This document shows positions 8,807 through 63,087 of a stretch of 64,000 nucleotides of DNA, piece by piece. Under the pieces are notes generated by a model. That model had not been told where the DNA came from, did not search any database, and worked only from the letters and a program-made list of their open reading frames with translations. The stretch covers positions 9,430 through 73,429 of the forward strand of contig DBDW01000008.1 of the NCBI GenBank assembly GCA_002293825.1, given 5' to 3'. The position numbers and the translations under genes are program-made. Every line of letters starts with the position of its first letter. Within the stretch, counting starts at the first letter, position 1. The DNA comes from Candidatus Magasanikbacteria bacterium UBA922. GTDB taxonomy: Bacteria; Patescibacteriota; Patescibacteriia; Magasanikbacterales; UBA922.

Positions 8807-10342
8807 ATGAAACAACCTTTTCTCAAATTTCCAGAAATCGTACAGATACTGATGGTATTTATCATACTGCATGTACTTGCATTTATCATATACGACTCCG
8901 CCGTTTTACGCATGATCACACTTGCGAGTGTCTTTGTGTCGACTATGTGGATCGCCCACAAATCACTCTTTACCGGACTTCTTATTGCATGTGCTGAAAT
9001 CTTTATCGGAGGACATGGCCATCTCATCAGTGCACCCATTCTCGGATTCCCTCTTTCTCTCCGTATCACTATTTTTCTTGCAATCATGGTAGTATGGATG
9101 ATACACATTCTGCGCAAAAAAATGCATCTCTCATACAAGCACCTTCCTTTATATCCATGGATACTCCTCATACTTGCACTTATACTCGGAGGAATTACCG
9201 GGCTCGCATATGGAAATAACCCTCTTTTTATTTTCGATGATGCAAATGGATATCTCATTCTCGGATATGCACTCCCATTCATCAGTATCGAATGGACCGA
9301 GGCACGCCGAGCCACACTTCTCCGCATACTCACCGCGGCTGCACTCTGGGTAAGTGTAGGCACACTCATCTTGTCATATATATTCACACACTCGATTGAA
9401 TCATATGCACGGCCACTCTACACATTTATCAGAGATACCCGTCTGGCAGAAATAACACTGCAATCCGTATCAAACTCTGAGGGAATTGTTACACACCCAT
9501 TTGCAGCGTATATTTTGGGTGAATCAGGATACTGGTACCGCATCTTTATGCAGTCACAATTTTTTGTCATAGCACTCACTTTTTTCCTTATCACATACAC
9601 AGTACTACATACTGAAAAAATTCGAATACTAAGCTCGACTTCACTACTCATTATTTTTTCAATAGCCACAATCTTTCTATCACAATCACGCAGTTTCTTT
9701 GTAGGATTATGTATCGCACTCACGGTGATAAGTGGATTTATATTCTACCTCAAACGAAAAGAATTTATAACACTGATAAAACAGTACATCTATCTCATTG
9801 GCATGAGCAGTATCGCACTTTTGCTCGTCTGGATATCTATCACACTTCCTATTCCGACGAAGCCATCGGTCGATACGGTATTATTCAGTAATACTTCAAT
9901 TGATACTGATCGATACGCGGCAGTATCTAGTCGCTGGTCACTACTCTCACCCATGATGATAGCTATCGATAACCGTCCGATTCTAGGCTCTGGATTTGGG
10001 ACCGTATTGACCTACAAAAGCGATGATCCGCGTATATATGATGAGACAGGCAGCACTGCGCTCACTACCTATCGATTTGAATGGGGGTATCACGATATAT
10101 GGATCAAAATGGGGCTAATCGGACTCGTAGCGTATGGCTCCTATCTGTACATGCTTTTTCGTGCAAGTGTCACTATGTGGAATCACACACCTCACTGGAT
10201 CATACTTGGGTTCGTAGGTACTACGCTTACTCTATTTGTAACACACATTTTTTCCCCTTACCTGAATCATCCGATTGGTCTCATCTGGCTTCTCTCCATA
10301 ATTCCATTTATATACACCACCCGATCACATACTATGGTATAA
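8807..10342 (+). CDS. polytopic membrane protein of the O-antigen ligase/Wzy_C-like family
   Basis: At least 10 TM segments. The C-terminal periplasmic loop has ...RPILGSGFG...H...G. spacing like Wzy_C. Confidence 0.5.
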   Translation: MKQPFLKFPEIVQILMVFIILHVLAFIIYDSAVLRMITLASVFVSTMWIAHKSLFTGLLIACAEIFIGGHGHLISAPILGFPLSLRITIFLAIMVVWMIHILRKKMHLSYKHLPLYPWILLILALILGGITGLAYGNNPLFIFDDANGYLILGYALPFISIEWTEARRATLLRILTAAALWVSVGTLILSYIFTHSIESYARPLYTFIRDTRLAEITLQSVSNSEGIVTHPFAAYILGESGYWYRIFMQSQFFVIALTFFLITYTVLHTEKIRILSSTSLLIIFSIATIFLSQSRSFFVGLCIALTVISGFIFYLKRKEFITLIKQYIYLIGMSSIALLLVWISITLPIPTKPSVDTVLFSNTSIDTDRYAAVSSRWSLLSPMMIAIDNRPILGSGFGTVLTYKSDDPRIYDETGSTALTTYRFEWGYHDIWIKMGLIGLVAYGSYLYMLFRASVTMWNHTPHWIILGFVGTTLTLFVTHIFSPYLNHPIGLIWLLSIIPFIYTTRSHTMV

Positions 10343-10395: not shown

Positions 10396-11343
10396 ATGCC
10401 TGTCTATCTCTCTTTTTTTATACTTGCCGGATTGTTTTTACTCCTCGGCACATCAGCAAATATTGTTGTCGACAATATTAAAAAAATAGGAAAAAAACTT
10501 CGCATTCCAACTTTTTTGCTTGGACTCATGCTCGGTATTCTTACCTCATTTCCCGAACTCTCAATTGCTATCAATACATCAATCAAAGGTATTCAAGATG
10601 TTTCAGTTGGAAATTTATTTGGAGGTATTTTTGTCGTATTCTGTATCACTCTCGGACTCGGACTCATCCTCAATCGTAAAATAAAAACCGATGGAAAAAT
10701 TACCACCCCATTACCAGCGTTTGCTTTTTTGTTTTTTCCACTCATACTCGGATTCGATGGCATGCTCAGCCTGATAGACGGTATTATTATCTCTCTTGGA
10801 TACCTGGTCGTCCTCACTCATTTCTATTTTAGAACACGAGAAGTAGACACTGTGGGAATCATGATTATACAAAAAAGTGCTCTTGCCAAAGAATTATTTC
10901 TTGTGCTCATCGGAACCCTTGTGGTAATTATTAGTTCAAATTTTATCGTACAATTAACCGTAAGCTTACTCGAAGTGTTCAATATTTCAGGATTTATGGT
11001 CGGACTCATGGTGTTTTCACTTGGAACCAATCTTCCCGAACTTACGGTCATTATCACCTCATGGAGAAAAAAACTCAAAGAAATTTCGTTTAGTCACATG
11101 CTCGGATCAGCAATCGTGAACCCTCTCATTTTTGCTATCATGACGTTCTTTGCCCCCGTTCCTATGGCCATCGATCGATCATACGCACTCATTTTCTATT
11201 TCCTTCTCATCCTCTCGATCACACTTCTCTACTTTTATAAAAGTAATAAAAACCTCAGCAGGCCTGAGGGTATCGTACTTATTATCATTTTCTTAATCTT
11301 TGCACTTCTTCAAGGAATGCTCCTTCCGCCACGTCTTATCTAG
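10396..11343 (+). CDS. Ca2+:cation antiporter (CaCA/YrbG-like)
   Basis: Two alpha-repeats, GILTSFPELSIAI and GTNLPELTVII. Confidence 0.7.
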   Translation: MPVYLSFFILAGLFLLLGTSANIVVDNIKKIGKKLRIPTFLLGLMLGILTSFPELSIAINTSIKGIQDVSVGNLFGGIFVVFCITLGLGLILNRKIKTDGKITTPLPAFAFLFFPLILGFDGMLSLIDGIIISLGYLVVLTHFYFRTREVDTVGIMIIQKSALAKELFLVLIGTLVVIISSNFIVQLTVSLLEVFNISGFMVGLMVFSLGTNLPELTVIITSWRKKLKEISFSHMLGSAIVNPLIFAIMTFFAPVPMAIDRSYALIFYFLLILSITLLYFYKSNKNLSRPEGIVLIIIFLIFALLQGMLLPPRLI

Positions 11344-11393
11344 GAGTGCCTACTCGGGGAATCCCACGAGCAGACACTCCTCACCCACCTGTA

Positions 11394-11744
11394 TTACAGC
11401 TCTCTTGAACGCATGCGTTGCCACCGCACCTCTTGATGAGGAGACACCAGGCAGACATCGGCAGCCTGTGAACTGACCACACCATCGACCGTGAAGATCC
11501 AGAAGAGGTCTTGCGTAGGATCTTCACGAAACCCTCTGATCTCAGTCACATAGACACGGCGCTGACCACCTACGTATCGTACCTCATAACTCACACGATC
11601 TTCATGCTTGAGCAGTCGATCGAGCACCGTCTCACGACTACCCAGATCGACATCACACCCGCTACTCATGAAATTAAGACTCGTGAGTGAAGTGGCAGCA
11701 ACGCACACATCTCTCAAAAATCTACGCCGATCACTCAAACTCAC
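11394..11744 (-). CDS. hypothetical small protein with a twin-arginine/lipoprotein-like signal. GC-rich foreign cassette A.
   Basis: GTG start preceded by AGGAGG. The N-terminus reads SDRRRFLRDVCVAATSLTSLNFMSSGC. GC3-rich codons, unlike neighbouring genes. Confidence 0.55.
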   Translation of the reverse strand: MSLSDRRRFLRDVCVAATSLTSLNFMSSGCDVDLGSRETVLDRLLKHEDRVSYEVRYVGGQRRVYVTEIRGFREDPTQDLFWIFTVDGVVSSQAADVCLVSPHQEVRWQRMRSREL

Positions 11745-11759
11745 GTTGAACCTCCTAAT

Positions 11760-11995
11760 TCAACACTGAAACAAAAACCCGCCAGGATTTCTGACGGATT
11801 TTGTTCGTTTAGACATCCGATACGGATCACAATAACAAGCACGGAATTGCGATACGTAATAGGATATCGAAAAAACATTTCTCCGTTCCTGCTCGGGACG
11901 TGAAAACTGATGATACGAACACTCTTGACCGGGCTTGGATACCGTTGCGGCACAGCGGAGGCTACCTGAAACAGGAATACCTCACTTCCAGAGTA
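11760..11995 (-). ncRNA. cobalamin-riboswitch-like leader with intrinsic attenuator (RS1)
   Basis: Minus-strand RNA contains GGAAGUGAGGUAUUCC...GCUGUGCCGCAACGGUA and CCCGAGCAGGAAC, both shared with the riboswitch at 15150. A terminator, CCGUCAGaaaucCUGGCGG followed by GUUUUUGUUU, sits just before the AGGAGG-GTG start. Confidence 0.4.
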
Positions 11996-12143
11996 TATTC
12001 ATAGATTTTGCATATAATGAACTGAGAGAAGTGTACCATGTATAAAAACACTCAGTCAAAAATCGCTAACTACTTTATTTTTTTACTGTTTTCTGGTAAC
12101 ATATCCACAACATAACATAATAAAAACACTACACATTACTCAC

Positions 12144-14054: not shown

Positions 14055-14109
14055 AAATTCAATTTTAGAAACTGCAGGACAGAGGATTTCCCCTGCCCTG
14101 CAGTGTGTT

Positions 14110-14325
14110 TCAGGTATGCCCCTTTGTCTCCACTTCTTCGTCATCTGTGCCATCGTCTGAGACGACTGCAAGGCAGCCGATAAGGAAGAGGGTCCCCACT
14201 ACCAGTGGCGGAAGTCTGCCGTACGGGCGTGAGAGCCCGTGCTTGATGAGGTGCCGAGCCATCTGCCCGACTTTTCCTTTCCAGAGTTTCTTCTCTGCAC
14301 GACGAAACGAAGTGGTCACTCGCAT
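14110..14325 (-). CDS. hypothetical 71-aa protein with a C-terminal TM helix (cassette B, gene 3)
   Basis: Its ATG overlaps the stop of the upstream 56-aa ORF (ATGA coupling). GC3-rich. Confidence 0.4.
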   Translation of the reverse strand: MRVTTSFRRAEKKLWKGKVGQMARHLIKHGLSRPYGRLPPLVVGTLFLIGCLAVVSDDGTDDEEVETKGHT

Positions 14326-14495
14326 CACTCGTCCCCCTCGAACCACACCTGACCGAAGAAGATGAAGCTGATCGAGTTCACAGTCCTCTTGAACGCAAAG
14401 GACAATTCCTCGAAAAATTCAGCGATCCCCATGAAGACATTCCTACCCCACTCTTTCATGAACTCTTCGAAACGTGGAAGTCCGCCAATCATCAT
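14325..14495 (-). CDS. hypothetical 56-aa protein, MMIGGLPRFEEFMKEW... (cassette B, gene 2)
   Basis: Preceded by AAAAGGGG. GC3-rich. Absent from the ORF track because it is under 60 aa. Confidence 0.35.
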   Translation of the reverse strand: MMIGGLPRFEEFMKEWGRNVFMGIAEFFEELSFAFKRTVNSISFIFFGQVWFEGDE

Positions 14496-14621
14496 GCACA
14501 CCCCTTTTCACCAAGACTTATTTCTTGCTTGGCTTATCACTACCCGAAAATAATTCCAGGTACTGATAAACATAGGTTCAGGGTGCGTCTCAAATAGAAA
14601 ACGTACCCTGAACCCCACCCT

Positions 14622-14963
14622 TTAGGCAAGCGCAACCTCGTTCACCGGCCAGTACCGGGTCGGAGACACGCGAGGAGGTGTACGAAGAATCGTACCGCCG
14701 GACCTGACGAGCACCTCGACATCTTTGACACGCTCAGAGATCTCGTCGTCCTGGACGACGAGGATGGTCGCACCAGTCTTCTTCACCATGACCACGAAGC
14801 CACCGGTGTAGCTCTGGTAGATGACAGAGACCGTGTACCTCACACCCTGCGAAAAACAGACGTGCGTCTGCACCCCACGAGGATTGATCGGACCACACCC
14901 TTCACGCAGGTCGAAGAGTTTCGAAATTTCCGCCAGAAAATTCTCGGCCACTTCACGAGTCAT
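14622..14963 (-). CDS. hypothetical 113-aa protein (cassette B, gene 1)
   Basis: ATG at 14963 with a strong SD (AAGGAGAGGGAG). GC3-rich. Followed by a 10-bp perfect-stem hairpin, GGTTCAGGGT...ACCCTGAACC. Confidence 0.5.
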   Translation of the reverse strand: MTREVAENFLAEISKLFDLREGCGPINPRGVQTHVCFSQGVRYTVSVIYQSYTGGFVVMVKKTGATILVVQDDEISERVKDVEVLVRSGGTILRTPPRVSPTRYWPVNEVALA

Positions 14964-15099
14964 ATCACTCCCTCTCCTTGTTAAGTGTTTTGTCCAAAAG
15001 GACACGTGACCCTAGCACACTCCTTGAACTTTTGCAAGTCCGAACATTGCCCACAGGATAATACCAAAAAACAATCTTTTTTGCAAGGTTGAGCAAAAG

Positions 15100-15149: not shown

Positions 15150-15315
15150 CCATATTCTACTGGAACTGGGGTGAAATTCCCCGACTGTGCCGCAACGGTA
15201 AAAGTCCGATCTTGTAGAATATGCATTCTCCCGAGCAGGAACTAATACACCCTATCTTTGTGGTATCGGTGTATTATATATACACATTCCTCCGTTCAGG
15301 GGAATTTTTTTATCT
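15150..15315 (+). ncRNA. cobalamin riboswitch (compact variant) with terminator expression platform (RS2)
   Basis: GGAACUGGGGUGAAAUUCCCCGACUGUGCCGCAACGGUAAAAGUCCG matches the cobalamin core (GGUGaAAuUCC ... CCGCaACnGUaA). P1 is AUUCUAC/GUAGAAU. A terminator, AUUCCUC-cguuca-GGGGAAU followed by UUUUUUU, sits 5 nt before the ATG of the DUF4430 gene. Confidence 0.6.
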
Positions 15316-15320
15316 CAATT

Positions 15321-15920
15321 ATGCACCAAAAGCTTTTATACTTCCTTATCACGCTTTTTACCACTGCAACACTGGTAAGTGGATATTCAGTAATCAGAGA
15401 TCAAAAATCACCTGTCGAAAAAAATACAGTTTCTACACAATTAAATACTGACACTCCAGCACACACACAAAACATTGAATCAGATATTAAAAATTCCATT
15501 CACTATACCGAAACTACTCAAAAAAAAGAGCCAGAATCAGACATTGAGAACAGCGAGATCATAAATACTTCCACTACTCCAGACACAGAAACTCATCCTT
15601 ACGAAATATTTGAAGCGAAAGTGACGCTCGCGATCGATGGAAAAAATCTTCATATCCCCTATCACGATAGCATGACCGCTGAACGTGCGATGCGGGACGT
15701 TGCACAACGGTATCCTGAATCATTCCACTATGAAGGAATCGAATATGGCGGGGACCTCGGCACATTCGTGACGGCGATCAACGGTAAGAAAGAAAATCCA
15801 CAAGAAAAAATGCGCTGGATCCTGTATCTCAACGGAAGCCCATCACCCAAAGGAATATCAATACTCACACTTAATCCAGACGATATACTCTCATGGAACT
15901 ATGAAAAAGAAACTCTATAG
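15321..15920 (+). CDS. secreted DUF4430 (transcobalamin beta-domain-like) protein
   Basis: Signal/TM followed by a C-terminal domain: TLAIDGKNLHIPY...YEGIEYGGDLGTFVTAINGK...WILYLNG. This family is typically found downstream of B12 riboswitches. Confidence 0.6.
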   Translation: MHQKLLYFLITLFTTATLVSGYSVIRDQKSPVEKNTVSTQLNTDTPAHTQNIESDIKNSIHYTETTQKKEPESDIENSEIINTSTTPDTETHPYEIFEAKVTLAIDGKNLHIPYHDSMTAERAMRDVAQRYPESFHYEGIEYGGDLGTFVTAINGKKENPQEKMRWILYLNGSPSPKGISILTLNPDDILSWNYEKETL

Positions 15921-18603
15921 CTTGCTCGTAATCATTTCACTTCTTTTCTCAAATATCGGGTTTGTATACGCATCAGAAGAATCTATCGAAGAAACGACTG
16001 CCGAAACCACAGAACAAATTCCCCAAGAAAATACTCCAGACGAAGCCGTAGAATCACCAACCTCAACTCCTGATACAATACCTGAAGATCTTCCTACGCG
16101 TACAGCAAAGCTCAGAATTGAAACATCTAAAGGGGTCTTGTTTGAAGATTCCGTTACCTTTAGTGCATGCAAACCATATGAGACGTCTGAAGAATATACA
16201 CTCAACGCACAATGCCTCATTGAGCAAACGGACGGATTGGACGTAGTTTGGACTCCAGGTGATGACGCATGGCTTGATCGAATAAACCAATACGGCACAG
16301 ACCTTTCAACGGGCTTATACTGGGCATACTTTGCAAATCTCGAATATGGGTCAGTCGCGTTGAATCATCTACCGGTACATGAAGGAGATGAGGTGTTGCT
16401 TGTGTACGGGGTAAACCCGCTTAAGATAGAAGTAGACACTCTTTCACCCACCCTTTACACAACAACAACGGTACGTGTATATGAATTTGGTTTTGATGAG
16501 TTTTGGAGTCCTGTATGGCTTCCTTCAAATAGTAGTACTCTATTACTGGATGAAAATTCGATTGCCGTCTCTCAAAATGGAGAAGCAATTCTCACATTTG
16601 ATACGCTCGACACACAAACACTTCGAGCAATTAAGACAGGACTTGCCTCAAGCAATAGTATTGAAGTGTACCCCATATTGCCAACAACCAAAGCTCAACT
16701 ACATGTAGTGGCACACGGACAAACTCTTTTCCACGACACCATAGAGGTGACAGCATGCATACCTAACGAAACACAGACTGATAGATACACATTAAACGCA
16801 CGATGCTTAATTGATCAAGCAATCGGCATTACACCTACCTGGAGCACCTATGGTACTGATTCCTTTCTCGATTCAATCAATGGTATAGACAACAACTTCG
16901 AAACCGGACTGTATTGGGGATATTTTATCAATCATGAATATGCTTCAACTGCGCTCAATCAATATATTCTCACTGAAGGAGATGAACTATTGATTACATA
17001 CAATACTATCCCACTCAAACTCACATTTTCGACCACTACCCCTACCACCGGAGACACAGTCACCGTATCTCTATACGAATTTGGTTTCGATGAGTTTTGG
17101 AGTCCTGCATGGCTAGCAGCGACCGGGGCATTATTCACAATAAACGGCACACCTGTAACCACCACTGATCACACTTATACATTTATCCCTACGACCACGA
17201 TTCCATATCTCATTCGTGCAGAAAAAGAAGGATATATCACGATTGAAAAAACCTTGGTGGCAACCACGACCCAATCTACCGGTGAATCAACTGAAAATAA
17301 TGAAGGAACAGGAGGCAATGGCAGCTCATCAGGGGGAAATATCACCAATCCTGTACAGCGTATGATCCAATTCCTCGATAGCACACAAAATGCCGACGGA
17401 TCATTTGGTTCAACTCCATTCCTGACTGATTGGGCAGCACTTGCCTATGGATCGTGGACAGACTCTTCACAAGGATTGAACGCTCTCAAAAATTACCTCA
17501 TCAGTGACCCTACCCCACTAGATGGTCCAAACGCAACCACAAATTACGCGCGCCGTAGTATGGCACTCATGGCACTCGGTATCAATCCTTATTCTGGAAC
17601 ACCCACCAACTATATTGAAAAAATAATTTCAGGATTTGACGGGACTCAATTCGGAGATACCGGTCTCATAAATGATGATATATTCGCACTCGTCCCATTA
17701 GTACACGCAGGGTATTCCAATAATCCGATTGTGGCTTCTACCACAAAATTTATCATTGAAAATCAATCAGCAAACGGATCATTTGGCTCAATCGATCTGA
17801 CCGCGGCTGCAATCCAAGCACTCTCTCCATTCTCATCTGACGACAATGTGCGCACCGCACTCACACACGCACGAACATATCTCAAAAATGCACAACGCAT
17901 TGATGCTGGTTTTGGCGATGTATATGCGACAGGATGGGTTCTCCAAGCAATCAGCGCACTTGGTGAACACATCTCTGACTGGCTAGTCAACGGCATCTCG
18001 CCAGTATCATATCTTACCAACGCACAAGCATCTGATGGAGGATTATTGAGTAGTGATGTACGAGCTAATCGTATCTGGTCTACCAGCTACGCAATTCCTG
18101 GACTGCTTGGCACCCCTTGGAATAAAATTCTTGCATCATTTGAGGCTCCAGTCACCACACCTGAAACCAGTGGACAAGGCTCATCTACCGCTACTACTAC
18201 CTTCGACATCATTACCCCTACCACCACTGTGGATAGCACAACCACCTCGACACCCATTTCACCAGAGATTACTATTACTGAAAACAGTGTAGATACGCTC
18301 GAACAAGGTTCCACATACACATCTTCCTCAATGCCGACCCCCATTATCACCTCTCGACAAGTAGAAAGCCAGACATCAATCGTACGAGGAGAACGAATTA
18401 TCGAGGATGTAGAACCATCTACAACACCCTCATCAACACCTACGAACACCCCTGAATCAACACTCGCGCCTGATGCAGATGGTGCGCAAACACTATCACA
18501 CACACCTACTCCCATCACCCGATACATCTTCTGGTCTTCATTTACTGCACTACTACTCGCACTCGGATATAGCTGGTTTATCCGCCCCACTTCAAAAAAA
18601 TAA
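15901..18603 (+). CDS. large surface-anchored protein combining two DUF4430-like repeats with prenyltransferase/squalene-oxidase-like repeats
   Basis: Signal peptide. Two repeats of about 110 aa (VTFSAC..YTLNA(Q/R)CLI...G.YW.YF.N.EY...ALN). QxxDGSFGS-type alpha-toroid repeats. An S/T/P-rich stalk and a C-terminal TM anchor. The layout resembles a transcobalamin alpha-plus-beta architecture. Confidence 0.55.
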   Translation: MKKKLYSLLVIISLLFSNIGFVYASEESIEETTAETTEQIPQENTPDEAVESPTSTPDTIPEDLPTRTAKLRIETSKGVLFEDSVTFSACKPYETSEEYTLNAQCLIEQTDGLDVVWTPGDDAWLDRINQYGTDLSTGLYWAYFANLEYGSVALNHLPVHEGDEVLLVYGVNPLKIEVDTLSPTLYTTTTVRVYEFGFDEFWSPVWLPSNSSTLLLDENSIAVSQNGEAILTFDTLDTQTLRAIKTGLASSNSIEVYPILPTTKAQLHVVAHGQTLFHDTIEVTACIPNETQTDRYTLNARCLIDQAIGITPTWSTYGTDSFLDSINGIDNNFETGLYWGYFINHEYASTALNQYILTEGDELLITYNTIPLKLTFSTTTPTTGDTVTVSLYEFGFDEFWSPAWLAATGALFTINGTPVTTTDHTYTFIPTTTIPYLIRAEKEGYITIEKTLVATTTQSTGESTENNEGTGGNGSSSGGNITNPVQRMIQFLDSTQNADGSFGSTPFLTDWAALAYGSWTDSSQGLNALKNYLISDPTPLDGPNATTNYARRSMALMALGINPYSGTPTNYIEKIISGFDGTQFGDTGLINDDIFALVPLVHAGYSNNPIVASTTKFIIENQSANGSFGSIDLTAAAIQALSPFSSDDNVRTALTHARTYLKNAQRIDAGFGDVYATGWVLQAISALGEHISDWLVNGISPVSYLTNAQASDGGLLSSDVRANRIWSTSYAIPGLLGTPWNKILASFEAPVTTPETSGQGSSTATTTFDIITPTTTVDSTTTSTPISPEITITENSVDTLEQGSTYTSSSMPTPIITSRQVESQTSIVRGERIIEDVEPSTTPSSTPTNTPESTLAPDADGAQTLSHTPTPITRYIFWSSFTALLLALGYSWFIRPTSKK

Positions 18604-21378: not shown

Positions 21379-21550
21379 CATAAACATCAGGTAATTAATA
21401 CAGCACGTACAGTATATCACATGCATATGCACAGATATCTATCCGTATGTATATTGTTCTTATTATGTAAAATTGTTATGCTATGTGTTCCCCTGGCCAT
21501 GCAGCATGCCGGGGTTCGACAGAAATGCTGCCCAAAGGAGAAATGGCCAC

Positions 21551-21871
21551 ATGGCCAAAGTGCTGAATGTTACTCTCTCCGGTGATCCAAGAAATCCGAG
21601 CGGTCCCTGCATCTCACACGCGTTCAACAACTACCGTTCATTCTTCAAAGACACGATCGTGTTCTACGGAGAAACTGACTCGGGTGTTCATGTCGAACTC
21701 GAGGTGAAGGTGAGCGAACTGCGATGGCTCGAAAAAACAGGCTCCTGGCAAGAAATCAAAGGGGTGACTGCTGACTCAAGCTCATCGTACGTGGCACAGC
21801 TCGAGACGGATAAAAAGATCGGTTCCATCCGATGCACCTCTCTCGCCAAGGCGTCCTACGCTGAAGCCTGA
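21551..21871 (+). CDS. hypothetical 106-aa protein (GC-rich cassette C)
   Basis: AAGGAG SD and GC3-rich codons. Followed by an 11-bp perfect inverted repeat, TGCCCACACAC...GTGTGTGGGCA. A possible promoter, TTGTTC-17-TATGCT, lies upstream. Confidence 0.45.
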   Translation: MAKVLNVTLSGDPRNPSGPCISHAFNNYRSFFKDTIVFYGETDSGVHVELEVKVSELRWLEKTGSWQEIKGVTADSSSSYVAQLETDKKIGSIRCTSLAKASYAEA

Positions 21872-22053
21872 TCACCCTGAGGAGTAATTCTATTGCCCAC
21901 ACACCATTGTACCTCGTATACATGTGTGTGGGCACCTTTACACCAGATCCTACAACATCTCTTAATACGTGACACCGCCGAAAAAGTAACACACTTGCCA
22001 AATTCTACGTTCTCAGCTATACTTGTTTATTCTCATTCCCTGAATTACTTCCT

Positions 22054-26560: not shown

Positions 26561-26730
26561 TATCCTACTATTTTTGATACAAAAACACAACCATAGTACT
26601 GTGCATGCGTTGTGTATCAAAAAAACCACCCATCGTATGTAGTAAGTATCTTCGATATAATCGACTACTTACCACAATCGAAGTGTGGGTGGTTTTTCTG
26701 CACACACACCTCGATAGGCATGTGCCACAC

Positions 26731-27432
26731 TCACTCGATCGGAAAACGGTGACGAACTTCGAAGTGCACTCCACGCTTATCCAGCATGAACTGCACCACA
26801 TCGACCGACACGTAGAGATTCTCCCGCCCACTCGCAGGAAAATCTTCCATCACCTTCGGAAGTCCGCTCTTTTCGATCGCTTCTGCGGACATCGCTCCGG
26901 TAAACCGAGCGATCGTCATGTGCGTACCCCAGGGAAGTGGAAGCTCGGCCCCTTTCCGATGACAGGATCCGAGCATCTCGGACATGGAGTGTACCAGCTC
27001 TGCAGTGGGATACGTCTTCAGGATTGCCGACACCTGATTGAATGTCGGGCGATCGATTCTTGCCGCAAGACGAGACCGATCCCGATTGCCCCACGTGCGA
27101 ATTGTTTCCTCGACAGCATCGTAGCAGGCGTCCAAGATCTGGACCACCTTTTCTTCGGACTCCTGCACGCAGTCCACGAGACCGATCACCGTATGTAGAT
27201 CACGAGTCTCATACACCAGTGCCGACGGAACTGCTTTTTTGAGCTTTTTGAGCCACGGTGCGAACGCCTCCCTGATGTTCTGGTGTGGTCTCATGACGAT
27301 TCCAACACCACGCGAAGGTCGTGTGAACACCGGATCTTCCAGAACTCCTTCTTTCCGTGCTTTCCAGTGCCCCGCCCGAATCTCGTCGTAGATTTTATCC
27401 TGCCGATGAATAAACGCAGGAAAATTGAGCAT
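26731..27432 (-). CDS. 2H phosphoesterase superfamily protein (LigT/ThpR-like) in GC-rich cassette D
   Basis: Two HxT/S motifs (LHTVIGLV and HMTIARF), GC3-rich codons and a strong SD (GGAGGGGGG) before MLNFPAF. The track ORF is 14 codons longer. Confidence 0.5.
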   Translation of the reverse strand: MLNFPAFIHRQDKIYDEIRAGHWKARKEGVLEDPVFTRPSRGVGIVMRPHQNIREAFAPWLKKLKKAVPSALVYETRDLHTVIGLVDCVQESEEKVVQILDACYDAVEETIRTWGNRDRSRLAARIDRPTFNQVSAILKTYPTAELVHSMSEMLGSCHRKGAELPLPWGTHMTIARFTGAMSAEAIEKSGLPKVMEDFPASGRENLYVSVDVVQFMLDKRGVHFEVRHRFPIE

Positions 27433-27544
27433 GATTCCCCCCTCCCATATCGAATGTTGTCTGTACCACTTCATCGACCCTATGTCGAAAAAGTACTACG
27501 ATTATCTATCATATCACACTCCTTTTGTCAACCGATATTCATAC

Positions 27545-53738: not shown

Positions 53739-53895
53739 TACTATACCACGACCTATTGATATCGTCAAGAAGCCTGTGTTCCTCTCATGATACATTGACA
53801 ACAAAACCCTACTATGATAGCTTCTTTCCAAGTTTGGACTGTCTCAGTCTAGACTCTAGCCAACAACCAACCCTTGCGACGACCAAGGAGGACAT

Positions 53896-53991
53896 ATGGA
53901 CCCGCCGAAGAAAAACCTGGTGAAAAAAGATAACATGATGGACAAGTCCAGCATCGGCAAGACGGCGCGCACGACGACCGCGGCACGCTGA
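53896..53991 (+). CDS. hypothetical 31-aa lysine-rich peptide (GC-rich cassette E, first ORF)
   Basis: A consensus SD (AAGGAGGA) sits 6 nt before the ATG. GC3-rich codons, unlike the AT-rich host genes. Confidence 0.35.
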   Translation: MDPPKKNLVKKDNMMDKSSIGKTARTTTAAR

Positions 53992-54144
53992 TCCACGACA
54001 CGGAGGTCGAGGATCCGCACCCCCCCACCGTAAGGAAAGGAAATGAAAAAGTATGCAGTCTTCTAGCGATTCCAACCTTTGGCTTTCGTGACCACAGTCA
54101 ACCTTACTACCGCAGATGCGGTACGAAAAAAGCTGTGCTCGCAC

Positions 54145-54199
54145 CTAGAGCCACACCTATCACACGAACAACAACTCAAGTGATATGGTGTGGCTCTAG
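54145..54199. repeat. long nested inverted repeat (13-bp perfect stem plus 6-bp inner stem)
   Basis: CTAGAGCCACACC-TATCAC...GTGATA-tg-GGTGTGGCTCTAG. Confidence 0.6.
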
Positions 54200-54220
54200 A
54201 CTACTATTATCATCTATCTC

Positions 54221-54243
54221 AAAAACGCCTATAAGGCGTTTTA
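54221..54243. terminator. bidirectional intrinsic terminator
   Basis: AAAAACGCC-tataa-GGCGTTTTATT. Confidence 0.55.
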
Positions 54244-54254
54244 TTGGTTTTCTA

Positions 54255-54283
54255 TTGACAATTTCTCGTTATTTGTGTACCAT
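54255..54283 (+). promoter_or_regulatory. near-consensus sigma-70 promoter
   Basis: TTGACA, a 17-nt spacer, then TACCAT. Confidence 0.5.
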
Positions 54284-54376
54284 CTCACGGCCTGTTTTAC
54301 CTGTGTTCCAGTATTCACTGATACACAACAGGTTACATAACTACACGAGTAACAACAATACACTTTTGGAGCAATC

Positions 54377-54601
54377 GTGCACGATCCTCGTTTTTCCTCG
54401 TTCTTCTACGACACCCTCCCTGACAAGAGTGAAAGCGCCCGATCGACCACGCTCGTCCCCGACGACTCGATCCCCACGGGACCGCTACACCCGCGTCGAG
54501 TACGGGCAGGAGGCAACCGCCGGATCCAGACCGACAACGGTCTCATGAAGTTCACCGGCGAGGAGACGCCAGGCAACACAGGTGACGGAAACGTCGCCTA
54601 A
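54377..54601 (+). CDS. hypothetical 74-aa acidic/proline-rich protein (GC-rich cassette E, second ORF)
   Basis: GTG start with GGAG 5 nt upstream and GC3-rich codons. The ORF on the opposite strand is probably frame noise. Confidence 0.4.
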   Translation: MHDPRFSSFFYDTLPDKSESARSTTLVPDDSIPTGPLHPRRVRAGGNRRIQTDNGLMKFTGEETPGNTGDGNVA

Positions 54602-55806: not shown

Positions 55807-57831
55807 TTATTCTACGACTGCTTTGATACGGCGAACCCCTGCACTTACCGCTTCTTCTTTTACAATTTTGAATTTTCCGATCACTCCCGTGTGTTCCACA
55901 TGTGGTCCTCCACAGAGTTCTCTACTAAACGTCGGAGCTTTCGGATCTGCGACTGGCAACTCTTTTGGATCACCCACACTGTACACTTTTACCATATCTT
56001 CGTATTTGTCTCCAAATAGCCCCATTGCCCCGCGTTTTCTCGCTTCTTCGAGAGGTAATATCTCGAATCCTACAGGATAATCTCGCTCAATTGCTGCATT
56101 TACCAATTCTTCAACGGCTGCAATCTGCTCGGGTGTCATTTTTTCTCCATGCGCAAAATCAAATCTCAAACGCTCGGGCGTGATATTACTTCCTTTTTGT
56201 ACCGCATGAGGACCTAACACCTTTTGTACTGCAGCATGGAGTAAATGTGTAGCGGTATGATATTTCAGACTCATCTCACTATGATCCGCGAGCCCACCTT
56301 TGAATTTCTGCTCAGATGCTTGACGAGAAAGTTCTTGATGTCTATTTTTTTCATTCTCAAACCCTTGTAAATCAACTTTTAACGCCCTCTCATTTGCAAG
56401 TTCTAGAGTTAATTCAATTGGAAAACCATATGATTGCACCAAATCAAAAGCTTGAACACCATCAATCACATTATCATCAAGTGCATTTTTATCTTTTATA
56501 ATACTTTCAAATTTTTTAAGACCTTGTTCTAAGGTATTTCTAAATTTCTTCTCCTCTTTTTCCAATTCATTCAAAATATCAATTCGTTTTTCATTTAAAT
56601 TAGCGTAAGCGCTGGAATAATAATTAATAAAACAATCAGCAACAAATGAAGTAAAGTTCTCTTTTATTCTAAGCTTTAAACCAAATCTCACTGCTCTTCT
56701 AATAAGCCTTCTAACAAAATATCCTTGATCTTTATTCCCAGGTAACACCCCATCACTAATCAAAAATGTTGCAGCACGAATATGATCAAGAATTACTCTA
56801 AACGCATAGGTAATTTCTTTTTGACTGATAGGATAAGTTCCATCTTGGATTTTTTCTGTCTCAAGTTTATTTCCAGAACTAAAAACATATTCAGCGGTGA
56901 AAGGTTCACTTTGATATCTAAGTTTTGTTTTTTCTTCAAGCAAAAATATTGCATCCTCAAATACATCAATCCTAAACACATCAGGATTTCCATTCAGTGC
57001 CGCTGCAATACGTTCGAGCCCTCCGCCAAAATCCACATTCTGCTGCTGTAATTTTTCAAAACCATTCTCAGTCTTCTGATATTCCATGAATACATTGTTT
57101 CCAATTTCCATGAATCGACCACAGTCGCAATTCACATGACACGGACTATCTTTCCATTCTGATGTTTCGTGCAATCCGAGCTCTACTCCAAAATCCCAAA
57201 ACATTTCAGTGTCTGGGCCACCAGGCTCTCCGACTGGCATGTTGCCAGGCACCCCACTTCTGCTCCACCAATTTTTCTTTTCTGAATAATAAAAAATTCG
57301 CTCACCTGGTTTCATCCCATCTTTTTCTGGATCTTCCCCGATACCCGCATCGATATTTTTTTCTTTATAAAGTTTCTGCCACAATTCTGCAGCTTCGGTA
57401 TCACGAGGAATACCAAGCTCTTCATTTCCTTTGAAACACGTGAAATACAACCGATTCGGATCGAGACCGACTTCTGTGGTCAAAAATTCCCACATCCAGG
57501 GAATCTGCTCTTGCTTAAAATAATCACCCAAGGACCAGTTACCAAGCATTTCAAAAAAGGTAGTGTGGCGATTATCACCCACTTCTTCGATATCTTGTGA
57601 TCGAAAACATTTTTGCGAATCAGTAATTCTGGTTCCCTGAGGATGCTTCTGTCCGAGTAAATATGGAACCATCGGTTGCATTCCTGAGCCAGTAAACAGA
57701 GTAGTAGGATCATTCTCCGGAATAAGCGAAGAAGATGGGATTACCACGTGTCCCTTCTGTGCAAAAAATTCGAGATATTTTTTTCTAAGTTCTGATGTAG
57801 ACATACCTGTGCAATCGTACACGAAATTCAC
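55807..57831 (-). CDS. alaS: alanine--tRNA ligase, short form lacking the C-Ala domain
   Basis: Class-II catalytic core (FTGSGMQPMVPYLLG), tRNA-recognition and editing domain with HTATHLLHAAVQKVLG. It ends after about 674 aa. Confidence 0.85.
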   Translation of the reverse strand: MNFVYDCTGMSTSELRKKYLEFFAQKGHVVIPSSSLIPENDPTTLFTGSGMQPMVPYLLGQKHPQGTRITDSQKCFRSQDIEEVGDNRHTTFFEMLGNWSLGDYFKQEQIPWMWEFLTTEVGLDPNRLYFTCFKGNEELGIPRDTEAAELWQKLYKEKNIDAGIGEDPEKDGMKPGERIFYYSEKKNWWSRSGVPGNMPVGEPGGPDTEMFWDFGVELGLHETSEWKDSPCHVNCDCGRFMEIGNNVFMEYQKTENGFEKLQQQNVDFGGGLERIAAALNGNPDVFRIDVFEDAIFLLEEKTKLRYQSEPFTAEYVFSSGNKLETEKIQDGTYPISQKEITYAFRVILDHIRAATFLISDGVLPGNKDQGYFVRRLIRRAVRFGLKLRIKENFTSFVADCFINYYSSAYANLNEKRIDILNELEKEEKKFRNTLEQGLKKFESIIKDKNALDDNVIDGVQAFDLVQSYGFPIELTLELANERALKVDLQGFENEKNRHQELSRQASEQKFKGGLADHSEMSLKYHTATHLLHAAVQKVLGPHAVQKGSNITPERLRFDFAHGEKMTPEQIAAVEELVNAAIERDYPVGFEILPLEEARKRGAMGLFGDKYEDMVKVYSVGDPKELPVADPKAPTFSRELCGGPHVEHTGVIGKFKIVKEEAVSAGVRRIKAVVE

Positions 57832-61101: not shown

Positions 61102-63087
61102 TTACGTAAGATCGTCAAAAGAAATTTCCTCATCTTCAAGTAAATCTTTTGGTGCTCGATCAATTGAAGGCGGAACACTCTTCGTCGACGGTGGAGTCAC
61201 TATCGGCGCATCGTTTGTTTTTTCTGCAACAACGGGAGGTGTCTGTGTTTGTGTCTGGAGATCTGCAAACGCAGTCGCAAACGGACGGTGCGATTGTGAT
61301 CCCGCTGGTTGAGCAGGTGTGTGAGAAATCACTCCTTCCCCACCCCCATTTCTCTTCTTGCGTTTTCGTCTACGTTTGCGCTTTCCTTCACCTGGCAATG
61401 ATAATTCAGACGTCCCCGCAGGCACACTCTGACTCACGACGTGCGGTACGCTAGAACGTGGAGATGTACTCGTATTCATCCGCGGTTGCTCAGCACGCTG
61501 GTCTTGATTCCGCGATGTCACCGCTGGTTCTCCCGCAGGCATTGTTTTTTCGACGACACGCTGAGCTGATTCAGCAACATTTTTTTGATGTTGCTCAAAC
61601 CGTTTCTGATTTTGTGATTTTGGTTCATCATTCTTTTTCTTCTGATCAAACACCACTCTACGATCTTCTTTTCTCACAGGAGCATTATTCATCTGCGTAC
61701 GCTGAGTAGTATTTTGAACTGGTGCAGATGATGTACTACGTACCCCTTCAATTCCCTGATCTTCCTCATCATTCGTAGATTGGCTCCATCGTGAAATTTT
61801 TTCCTCGACAACCTCTTTCTTTCGTCCATATCGTTCTTGTGACACACGCACCACTTTTTCCGATGATTTGGTAGAGCTTGCGAGTGGTGGTAGTGTCGCA
61901 GCGCTAAACGGCTGTGACGCAACACCGTCGATCATGAGTTTCAAAATAATCTGATATTTTGTCAGATTTACAATATCTTCTTCGGTAAATGTAGGAGTAA
62001 ATTCTTTGACAAGCATTTCAGCATCAGCACCACCAACACGGAAGGTGACAATCGTTCCTACGTTTCCAAATACTGCATTTGCAACCACTTCATCCAACTG
62101 TGCAACATATTGATGAGCCATAATCAGACTCAGCCGATATTTTCGAGCCTCAGACAAAATATTTGCAAATGACGGAGTTGCAAAATTCTGAAACTCATCA
62201 ACATAGAGGAAGAAATCTTTTCGATCGTTTTCTGGCGTATCGACACGTTCCATTGCAGCAAGTTGTAATTTGGTAATCAACATTCCCCCAAGCAATCGAC
62301 TATTATCTTCCCCGATACGTCCTTTTGATAAATTCATGATAAAAATTTTTCTCGTATCCATTATCTCACGCACATTGATCGTAGATTTCACCTGCGCCAC
62401 CATGTTTCTGATAATTGAAGCCGACAAAAATTGTCCGATTTTATTCTGAATTGGGGCTACTGCTTCTTTTGCATAGCGATCATCATAATTTGCAAATTCA
62501 TCACGCCAAAAGGCTTTAATTACTGGATCTTTGAGGTGGCGCACGACACGCTTACGATATTCCTTATCTGAAAGCAGACGATTGACACCGAGCAAAGTGG
62601 ATCCTGGATAGTCTAGAAGTGCGAGAAGTGTATTATTCAATATATATTCCATACGCGAACTCCACACATCAGGCCAAATCTTCTTGAACGTTCCCATGAG
62701 TCCGGCTGCGACTAGATGTTTCTGCTCTTCAGTTTTTACTTCAAGAATATTAAATCCAATCGGATTTTCCACATCGGCAGGATTGAGATATACCACATCA
62801 TTCAGACGCCATGACGGAATATGATCAATAATCTTTTCTGCAAAATCTCCATGTGGATCGACGAGCCCCACTCCATGTCCTGCATAAATATCCGACAACA
62901 CCATGTTTTCCATGATAGTGGTTTTTCCCATTCCTGTCTTCCCGATCACGTACATGTGACGTCTACGGTCATCTGTTTTAATTCCAAAACGCCGTACCTG
63001 ATTACGGAAATTGGTCTGTGCAAAAACACAGATATCTTGGGAAACTTTTGGAGCCTGACCTTTACTCGTGAGCTGTGGACTGGGCAT
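61102..63087 (-). CDS. VirD4/TraG/TraD-like coupling-protein family ATPase with a long low-complexity C-terminal tail
   Basis: HMYVIGKTGMGKTT Walker A, YVDEFQNF, and LIMAHQYVAQL. A paralog of the ORF at 1..2167. The last roughly 250 aa are Q/P/E/K/R-rich. Confidence 0.7.
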   Translation of the reverse strand: MPSPQLTSKGQAPKVSQDICVFAQTNFRNQVRRFGIKTDDRRRHMYVIGKTGMGKTTIMENMVLSDIYAGHGVGLVDPHGDFAEKIIDHIPSWRLNDVVYLNPADVENPIGFNILEVKTEEQKHLVAAGLMGTFKKIWPDVWSSRMEYILNNTLLALLDYPGSTLLGVNRLLSDKEYRKRVVRHLKDPVIKAFWRDEFANYDDRYAKEAVAPIQNKIGQFLSASIIRNMVAQVKSTINVREIMDTRKIFIMNLSKGRIGEDNSRLLGGMLITKLQLAAMERVDTPENDRKDFFLYVDEFQNFATPSFANILSEARKYRLSLIMAHQYVAQLDEVVANAVFGNVGTIVTFRVGGADAEMLVKEFTPTFTEEDIVNLTKYQIILKLMIDGVASQPFSAATLPPLASSTKSSEKVVRVSQERYGRKKEVVEEKISRWSQSTNDEEDQGIEGVRSTSSAPVQNTTQRTQMNNAPVRKEDRRVVFDQKKKNDEPKSQNQKRFEQHQKNVAESAQRVVEKTMPAGEPAVTSRNQDQRAEQPRMNTSTSPRSSVPHVVSQSVPAGTSELSLPGEGKRKRRRKRKKRNGGGEGVISHTPAQPAGSQSHRPFATAFADLQTQTQTPPVVAEKTNDAPIVTPPSTKSVPPSIDRAPKDLLEDEEISFDDLT

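Follow-up and report, generated by a model that had tools for sequence, protein, structure and literature searches.

The leader considered here precedes a gene for a protein of 116 amino acids (aa; 11394-11744, minus strand) of Candidatus Magasanikbacteria bacterium UBA922, in a stretch of 64,000 nucleotides (nt) of contig DBDW01000008.1 (assembly GCA_002293825.1, forward-strand positions 9,430 to 73,429) that we call the window. With a probability of roughly 0.65 we regard this leader (11745-12030, minus strand) as a diverged, functional variant of the class-II cobalamin riboswitch located at 15152, of which it would be a paralogue. Judged by its sequence, it is homologous to the cobalamin clan, yet it scores below the threshold of each curated model. 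An earlier note on this DNA, written from the letters alone, had placed a second, paralogous cobalamin-riboswitch-like leader in front of the 116-aa gene, and a structured leader of this type was indeed found there: it shares with the canonical copy two sequence blocks confined to these two leaders, it has orthologues elsewhere, and its helices show compensatory changes.

The canonical copy was recognised by the default Rfam scan as a member of AdoCbl-II (RF01689) at 15152-15222 on the plus strand, with 44.8 bits (gathering score 36.5). The first block shared by the two leaders, CTGTGCCGCAACGGTA, lies at 11940-11955 (minus) and 15185-15200 (plus); there are exactly two matches in the window, even when two mismatches are allowed, where 0.01 would be expected by chance. 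The second, CCCGAGCAGGAAC, lies at 11885-11897 (minus) and 15230-15242 (plus) and likewise has exactly two matches in the window (0.05 expected). The order of the blocks, their spacing and their strand relative to the downstream gene are the same in both leaders, and the similarity extends past the blocks to the UGGAA junction, the closing helix and parts of the expression platform. As aligned by Rfam in the canonical copy, the 16-nt block consists of J4/5, P5/L5 and the 5' half of P6, while the RF01482 alignments to related leaders identify the 13-nt block as the P13 hairpin with its L13 loop. In cobalamin riboswitches L13 is the kissing-loop partner of L5. Because one block carries P5/L5 and the other P13/L13, they represent the two halves of a known regulatory contact and not a generic repeat. 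A chance similarity or a simple dispersed repeat without RNA function, the contrary explanation which the earlier note had itself raised, can be dismissed as having next to no chance of being correct. The failure of the default Rfam scan to recognise the variant speaks for it; against it stand the restriction of the blocks to two leaders, their common order, spacing and strand, the conservation of orthologous leaders with compensatory changes, and a covariance-model alignment that is full-length, if sub-threshold.

Relatives of the 116-aa protein are rare. A word-indexed search returned only the protein itself, and HMMER gave 13 matches at E<=1e-3 among 1.84 billion representatives. The two closest of these (52% and 49% identity) are encoded in loci L009 and L010, which have the same gene order as the window: FolD on the opposite strand, the leader, a small gene of the DUF4430 family and a convergent Na/Ca exchanger gene. 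A pattern scan of species-representative genomes added the loci L017, L019 and L021; four further matches of that scan had no aptamer context and were set aside as chance. Scanning genomes with the protein alone gave no match, and a metagenome scan with an alignment found only two loci; the alignment of the seven-member protein family was too divergent to serve as a search query. No viral contig matched the variant aptamer pattern or the motif of the middle hairpin described below. All six leaders, which represent three lineages, consist of the same promoter, variant aptamer, P13 hairpin with U-run, middle hairpin and distal hairpin. The leader has remained at the same syntenic position while the proteins it precedes are only 44-51% identical between the three lineages. 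Since the canonical paralogue was also found in all three (in the window, in L010 with 44.6 bits and in L019 with 40 bits), the duplication must be old, and both copies have been kept since before the lineages split.

The records of the metagenome-assembled genomes that contain L017, L019 and L021 are titled 'uncultured Gammaproteobacteria bacterium'. The alanyl-tRNA synthetase of the window (55807-57831, minus strand) has its nearest named relatives in Candidatus Magasanikbacteria or Patescibacteria (62-66% identity), and for this reason we consider those titles doubtful. The same leader was also present in eight contigs from this species; over the full 399 nt six of these are 100% identical, one, L004, contains only the last 154 nt, and none was useful for covariation. 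L003, a contig of 1.8x coverage from this species, has one mismatch and a 56-nt gap in the aptamer core near its position 598 (about 11914-11969 of the window). The gap is flanked by short TCA/TTCA microhomologies and is probably either an assembly artefact or a rare natural allele in which the riboswitch is deleted.

The variant aptamer occupies 11915-12002 on the minus strand, with a core from P1 to P1 at 11919-11996, as delimited by a full-length alignment to RF01689 and by the pairing in a curated alignment. It lies between the DUF4430 gene and a sigma-70-like promoter at 12030-12059 (minus strand; TTGACT, an 18-nt spacer and a TG-extended TACACT) that was found by a promoter scan and has the same -35/-10 arrangement in all six leaders. 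The closing helix, the UGGAA junction, P5/L5, P6, a J6/3-like GUCAA and P13/L13 are all retained. The first shared block falls in the segment 11930-11955 (minus strand), composed of J4/5, P5-L5 (UGU GCC GCA) and P6-L6 (CGG UAUCCAAGC CCG), in which the stems of P5 and P6 are invariant in all nine aptamers aligned. The second falls in the P13 hairpin at 11884-11900 (minus strand), whose loop CGAGCA is the presumed kissing partner of L5; its assignment rests on the P13/L13 of RF01482 in L010 and L014 and on the 13-mer of the canonical leader.

In the curated alignment the differences between the two aptamers are confined to L4, L6 and J6/3. P6 has 3 bp in both copies and is followed by a 5-nt 3' junction that reads GUCAA in the variant and AUCUU in the canonical copy, while L6 is UAUCCAAGC in the former and UAAAAGU in the latter. 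The outer stem of P4 has 4 bp, GAGG/CCUC as compared with GGGG/CCCC. Beyond it, the canonical 7-nt L4, UGAAAUU, is replaced by UAUU-CCUG-UUU-CAGG-UAG, so that the P4 of the variant (11958-11983, minus strand) is prolonged, past a small internal loop whose A-A mismatch is invariant, to the distal hairpin CCUG-UUU-CAGG. Between lineages the sequence of the distal stem differs and its pairing is kept, and the loop above it is variable (UUU, UAUUAAGU, UAUUU or AUAU). The conserved T-loop sequence of the GUGAAAUUC type, which the canonical copy has together with its UAAAAGU loop, is absent. One might speculate that the invariant A-A mismatch is a docking site for L6. In other respects the resemblance is close: the 16-nt core and the 13-nt P13/L13 block are identical, the junction is the same, each aptamer has a single closing helix, the promoters are similar and DUF4430 genes follow in both cases. 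The canonical leader differs further in having one terminator, 60 nt past P13, and a middle hairpin that is not conserved in sequence.

To assess the structure, six variant and three canonical aptamers were aligned under control of the register, with N as filler, and the alignment was checked against the real sequences. In helices P1, P4a, P4b, P5 and P6, 94.1% of the cells were paired, compared with 34-54% when the 3' partners were slid by one to three columns. In eight pairs, all in P1 and P4, both partners had changed, and the covariation score of 0.265 (0.114 in shuffles) was not reached by any of 500 shuffles. The compensations include C-G to A-U and A-U to G-C in P1, and GGGG/CCCC, AGGG/CCCU and GAGG/CCUC in P4a. 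Independently of this alignment, each lineage folded alone gave the same elements, and RNAalifold applied to an unedited MAFFT alignment recovered P4a, P4b, P13, the middle hairpin and the apex of the distal hairpin. The suggestion in the earlier note that segments conserved with different spacers reflect a real RNA fold is supported.

When the aptamer of the window was searched alone, the best of 4227 Rfam families was AdoCbl-II (RF01689), with 16.2 bits and an E value of 0.21 for the slice (gathering score 36.5). Model positions 1-81 are aligned, and 17 inserted nt take the place of six L4 positions. The aptamer and P13 of L010, the most divergent orthologue, aligned on their own to positions 1-149 of RF01482, P13 included, with 29.0 bits and an E value of 6e-4 for the slice (gathering score 50); here an 18-nt insertion stands in place of L4, and CCCGA-GCAGGAG is aligned as L13. 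The variant aptamers of L009, L017, L019 and L021 had no Rfam match at E<=1. The model positions of the J1/3 T-loop (class IIa) are deleted in the canonical and the variant copy alike. Covariance models thus gave full-length, sub-threshold alignments to RF01689 and RF01482 and no match at gathering score, and of the cobalamin-riboswitch-like character proposed by the earlier note it is the homology and the structure that stand; with each cobalamin model missed at its gathering score and the L4 T-loop replaced, the element is a variant and no ordinary member. That replacement explains why the curated models are missed. A match to Phe_leader in a permissive scan (36.9 bits, gathering score 55) is sub-threshold and terminator-shaped and was rejected as an artefact of shape.

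Among known riboswitches the variant comes closest to class II (AdoCbl-II, RF01689; env8-type, PDB 4FRN/4FRG as cited in PMC7367189), with which it has in common a short P6 without the class-I extension, the GGAA junction, P5/L5, an A linker, a P13/L13 in the platform and a B12-acquisition gene downstream. It differs in the 17-18 nt helical insertion in place of the L4 T-loop, in its altered L6 and in lacking a J1/3 T-loop. According to PMC6158498, the J1/3 T-loop varies among class-II members, and some of them do not have it. Like the Enterococcus faecalis example described there, both paralogues of the window are devoid of this module, which buttresses the binding site; however, such members are not listed in PMC6158498 as being without L4, whereas the variant is without L4 too. 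In class II, L6 docks into L4, and the Bacillus subtilis yvrC riboswitch has a T-loop/tetraloop hybrid at L4 (PMC7367189). yvrC sets a precedent for an L4 that departs from a true T-loop and for a rearranged periphery around a core that still binds cobalamins, but it keeps a short T-loop-like L4 that receives an L6 base, whereas in the variant L4 continues the helix and ends in a distal loop that varies. In the literature, our search of which was incomplete, we found no class-II member described as having a helix in place of L4.

It might be argued that the remodelled P4 and L6 have shifted the aptamer to another corrinoid, with a different upper ligand, cobinamide or another cobamide, so that the two paralogues control different DUF4430 binders. 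This is an unlikely but serious candidate. Peripheral elements are reported to tune cobalamin selectivity (PMC7367189, PMC6158498), both paralogues are kept in every lineage in front of different DUF4430 genes, and the differences between them are limited to L4, L6 and J6/3. The same retention would, however, be expected if the two switches differed only in affinity or promoter context.

The expression platform of the variant begins with P13. Together with a lower stem and the U6 that follows, P13 forms an element at 11870-11909 (minus strand), termed T1, that we propose to be a B12-dependent intrinsic terminator. For the three lineages RNAfold gave its interrupted stem an energy of -7 to -10.5 kcal/mol, and a run of six or seven U follows directly in all six leaders. 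The energy is similar to that of the terminator of the canonical leader (15286-15305, -7.2 to -8.3 kcal/mol), which was flagged by a terminator scan. Following the standard model for the cobalamin clan, a bound corrinoid would allow the kissing of L5 with L13 to lock the marginally stable P13 hairpin, and P13 with its lower stem and U-run would then act as the terminator. The downstream gene for B12 capture would thus be off when B12 is plentiful. The L5 sequence UGCCG can pair with CG(A)GCA of L13, and both loops are invariant in the set.

Between T1 and the gene lie two further hairpins and the ribosome-binding region. The first, H2, is a long irregular hairpin at 11812-11869 (minus strand), and no other segment of the locus is as well conserved: each of the six sequences retains all 19 pairs, and all five substitutions in the helix preserve pairing. 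It is single-copy in the window and matched no Rfam family. The canonical leader has a hairpin at the corresponding position, the sequence of which is free to vary. The second, T2, at 11769-11800 (minus strand), is a distal hairpin of -13 to -19 kcal/mol (RNAfold) with a U/G-rich tail. The sequence of its stem varies by lineage with the pairing kept, and its tail is U-rich in two lineages only and U-poor in the L009 group. The ribosome-binding region at 11745-11764 (minus strand) contains an AGGAGG (within 11748-11758) 7 nt before the GTG start; in this strain it lies in the loop of a small hairpin which is not conserved in the orthologues. The earlier note had described a hairpin with a U-tract right before the AGGAGG and GTG as an attenuator. 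The hairpin with its U-rich tail, the AGGAGG and the GTG at 11744 are all present, but this hairpin is probably not a terminator coupled to the switch. The P13 hairpin with its conserved U-run is probably the better candidate for that role. Attenuation by a leader peptide was also considered, as a 45-aa ORF was called by JGI at 11741-11878 (minus strand, ATG at 11878). Its ATG is missing from L010 and its frame is broken in L009; the ORF is probably spurious and this mechanism was rejected.

One might also imagine a leader with two sensors, namely a cobalamin aptamer devoid of the L4 T-loop, possibly of shifted selectivity, and a second one formed by H2 and T2, which would sense a signal on its own or switch on binding a protein in a manner so far undescribed. 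We consider such an arrangement unlikely.

Several observations weigh against the interpretation of the leader as a functional cobalamin riboswitch. No cobalamin match appeared in the default Rfam scan or at E<=10 over 441 nt, and none of the six variants reached the gathering score of any curated cobalamin model. The covariation comes from three independent lineages and two paralogues, in a hand-curated alignment leaning towards structure, and P5, P6, L5 and L13, being invariant, contribute nothing to it. The energy of the L5-L13 duplex was no better than that of shuffled loops. In a search by eye and in suboptimal folds, the candidates for a conserved antiterminator pairing amounted to only 4-5 bp and none was convincingly conserved. 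The consensus terminator scan flagged neither T1 nor T2, though it did flag the terminator of the canonical leader. With H2 and T2 placed between T1 and the GTG, the regulatory logic is only partly accounted for. The L4 T-loop of class II is highly conserved and directs global folding (PMC6158498); with its loss, binding of a ligand by the variant cannot be assumed.

A further explanation is that of a relic which lost B12 binding together with the L4 T-loop. The leader would then be constitutive or run by another signal, for instance a protein acting with H2/T2, and the core would be kept for some other structural role. Such a history would be in keeping with the absence of L4, the best-conserved folding module in class II (PMC6158498), with Rfam scores that are sub-threshold throughout and with the conservation of H2, which exceeds that of the aptamer. 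The pattern of conservation nevertheless makes it unlikely. L5, L13 and the junctions next to the ligand do not vary from lineage to lineage, and the changes seen in the helices around them are compensatory. Nucleotide identity between lineages is 83-91% for H2, 74-86% for the aptamer and 69-81% for T1, as compared with 69-75% for the coding sequence of FolD, 65% for the DNA upstream of the promoter and 58-63% for the coding sequence of the regulated gene itself. A decaying pseudo-aptamer is not expected to be better conserved than a neighbouring housekeeping gene. Moreover, the regulated gene is of the B12-binding protein type.

The product of this gene was held by the earlier note to be of unknown function. 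This view has to be given up. The mature part belongs to DUF4430 (PF14478; residues 39-109, 32.8 bits with a cutoff at 23.8, E 9.7e-8), and the AlphaFold model which that note had called for, made with AlphaFold2, has a predicted local distance difference test score (pLDDT) above 90 for residues 37-116. Foldseek matched the model with probability 1.00 to a DUF4430 structure (3u7z) and to the beta-domains of intrinsic factor, transcobalamin and haptocorrin, with root-mean-square deviations of 2.5-2.9 Å over 76-78 columns for most. DUF4430 corresponds to the C-terminal domain of transcobalamins (PMC4350170). The mature protein is of the same family and fold as DUF4430 and the beta-domain of transcobalamin and intrinsic factor (PF14478; PDB 3u7z, 5np4), but it is bacterial, presumably anchored by its signal, of a single domain of about 85 residues, and has no alpha-domain. 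From the model, the 116-aa protein is presumably a small, exported, probably lipid-anchored protein with the transcobalamin beta-domain fold and a putative B12-capture function; that it binds cobalamin is presumed from the fold and the riboswitch context. Two distant members of the small family are likewise encoded behind AdoCbl aptamers, one scoring above the gathering score (L014, 55.6 bits) and one below it (L012, 43.3 bits). An analogy with BtuH was dropped, since BtuH belongs to DUF4465 and not to DUF4430.

The RRRFLR and SSGC motifs to which the earlier note drew attention are both present at the N-terminus. An RR-x-F-L signal is found in all seven family members, with R6, R7 and F9 invariant, and the twin-arginine signal model TIGR01409 gave 15.6 bits, just under its cutoff of 16.7, and matched three of the seven at E<=1. 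Cys30 forms the lipobox-like site; an aligned Cys about 30 residues into the protein occurs in six of the seven members and in the L021 version and is absent in P0007. A Ser at the -3 position is atypical of the lipobox consensus. In the JGI annotation the gene starts at an internal ATG (11669 instead of 11744), giving 91 aa from which the signal peptide is removed. The long reading of 116 aa is backed by a conserved Shine-Dalgarno sequence and by DRR-x-FL in all orthologues.

DUF4430 proteins are likewise encoded downstream of the canonical riboswitch (15258-15920 and 15901-18603, plus strand). The second of these has 900 aa and, besides DUF4430, weak sub-threshold matches to Cobalamin_bind (PF01122, a eukaryotic family) and to alpha-toroids of the squalene-hopene-cyclase type; by eye its C-terminus is hydrophobic in the translation. 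On these sequence features it may be a full transcobalamin-like surface protein, with alpha- and beta-domain, in a bacterium of the candidate phyla radiation (CPR).

The earlier note had taken the 116-aa gene for a foreign, GC-rich acquisition of actinobacterial type. Its GC content is 0.516, and the comparison of GC at third codon positions (GC3) with core genes confirmed an offset, 0.487 against 0.361 +/- 0.040 in 27 long ORFs of the window. The offset is real but moderate, and it is shared by the syntenic orthologues (0.603 against 0.466 in L009, 0.541 against 0.318 in L010), which at about 50% identity reside in two other lineages. The only relatives found come from its own clade and from Patescibacteria, and none is actinobacterial. 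An actinobacterial or recent foreign origin was therefore rejected. Since the orthologues share the offset and the window has other GC-rich islands, it is long-standing and not the mark of a recent transfer. Such islands, with a GC content of 0.50-0.59 in a genome of 0.42, are located at 14100-15005 (minus strand), about 21500-21900, 26600-27500 and 53800-54600. The island at 14.1-15.0 kb contains three small ORFs, the largest without a Pfam match. At the corresponding position L010 likewise carries three small ORFs that are just as rich in GC, but their sequences show no detectable similarity to those of the window.

Two other features of the window may be mentioned. Between the convergent genes for the 116-aa protein and the Na/Ca exchanger there is a strong hairpin of 38 nt (11343-11380, minus strand; a 74-nt segment that includes it folded at -35 kcal/mol in RNAfold). 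A clear U-tract is missing, and the hairpin probably marks the end of transcripts from both directions. The DNA at 61102-63087 (minus strand), close to where the window ends, encodes a homologue of TrwB/TraG-type type-IV coupling proteins, which hints at a conjugative or DNA-uptake element nearby.

If the variant still binds B12, it would represent a different organisation of the same ligand pocket and a natural test case for which parts of the periphery are dispensable. Annotation with covariance models probably under-counts the B12 regulation present in CPR genomes. H2, better conserved than its surroundings, is a lead to an unknown regulatory element, and should the two-sensor arrangement be true, a B12-capture protein would be under combinatorial control in CPR bacteria. 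The protein itself points to a very small and rarely encountered family of exported proteins of the transcobalamin-beta type, with a link to B12 scavenging by bacteria with reduced genomes, which presumably rely on external cofactors.

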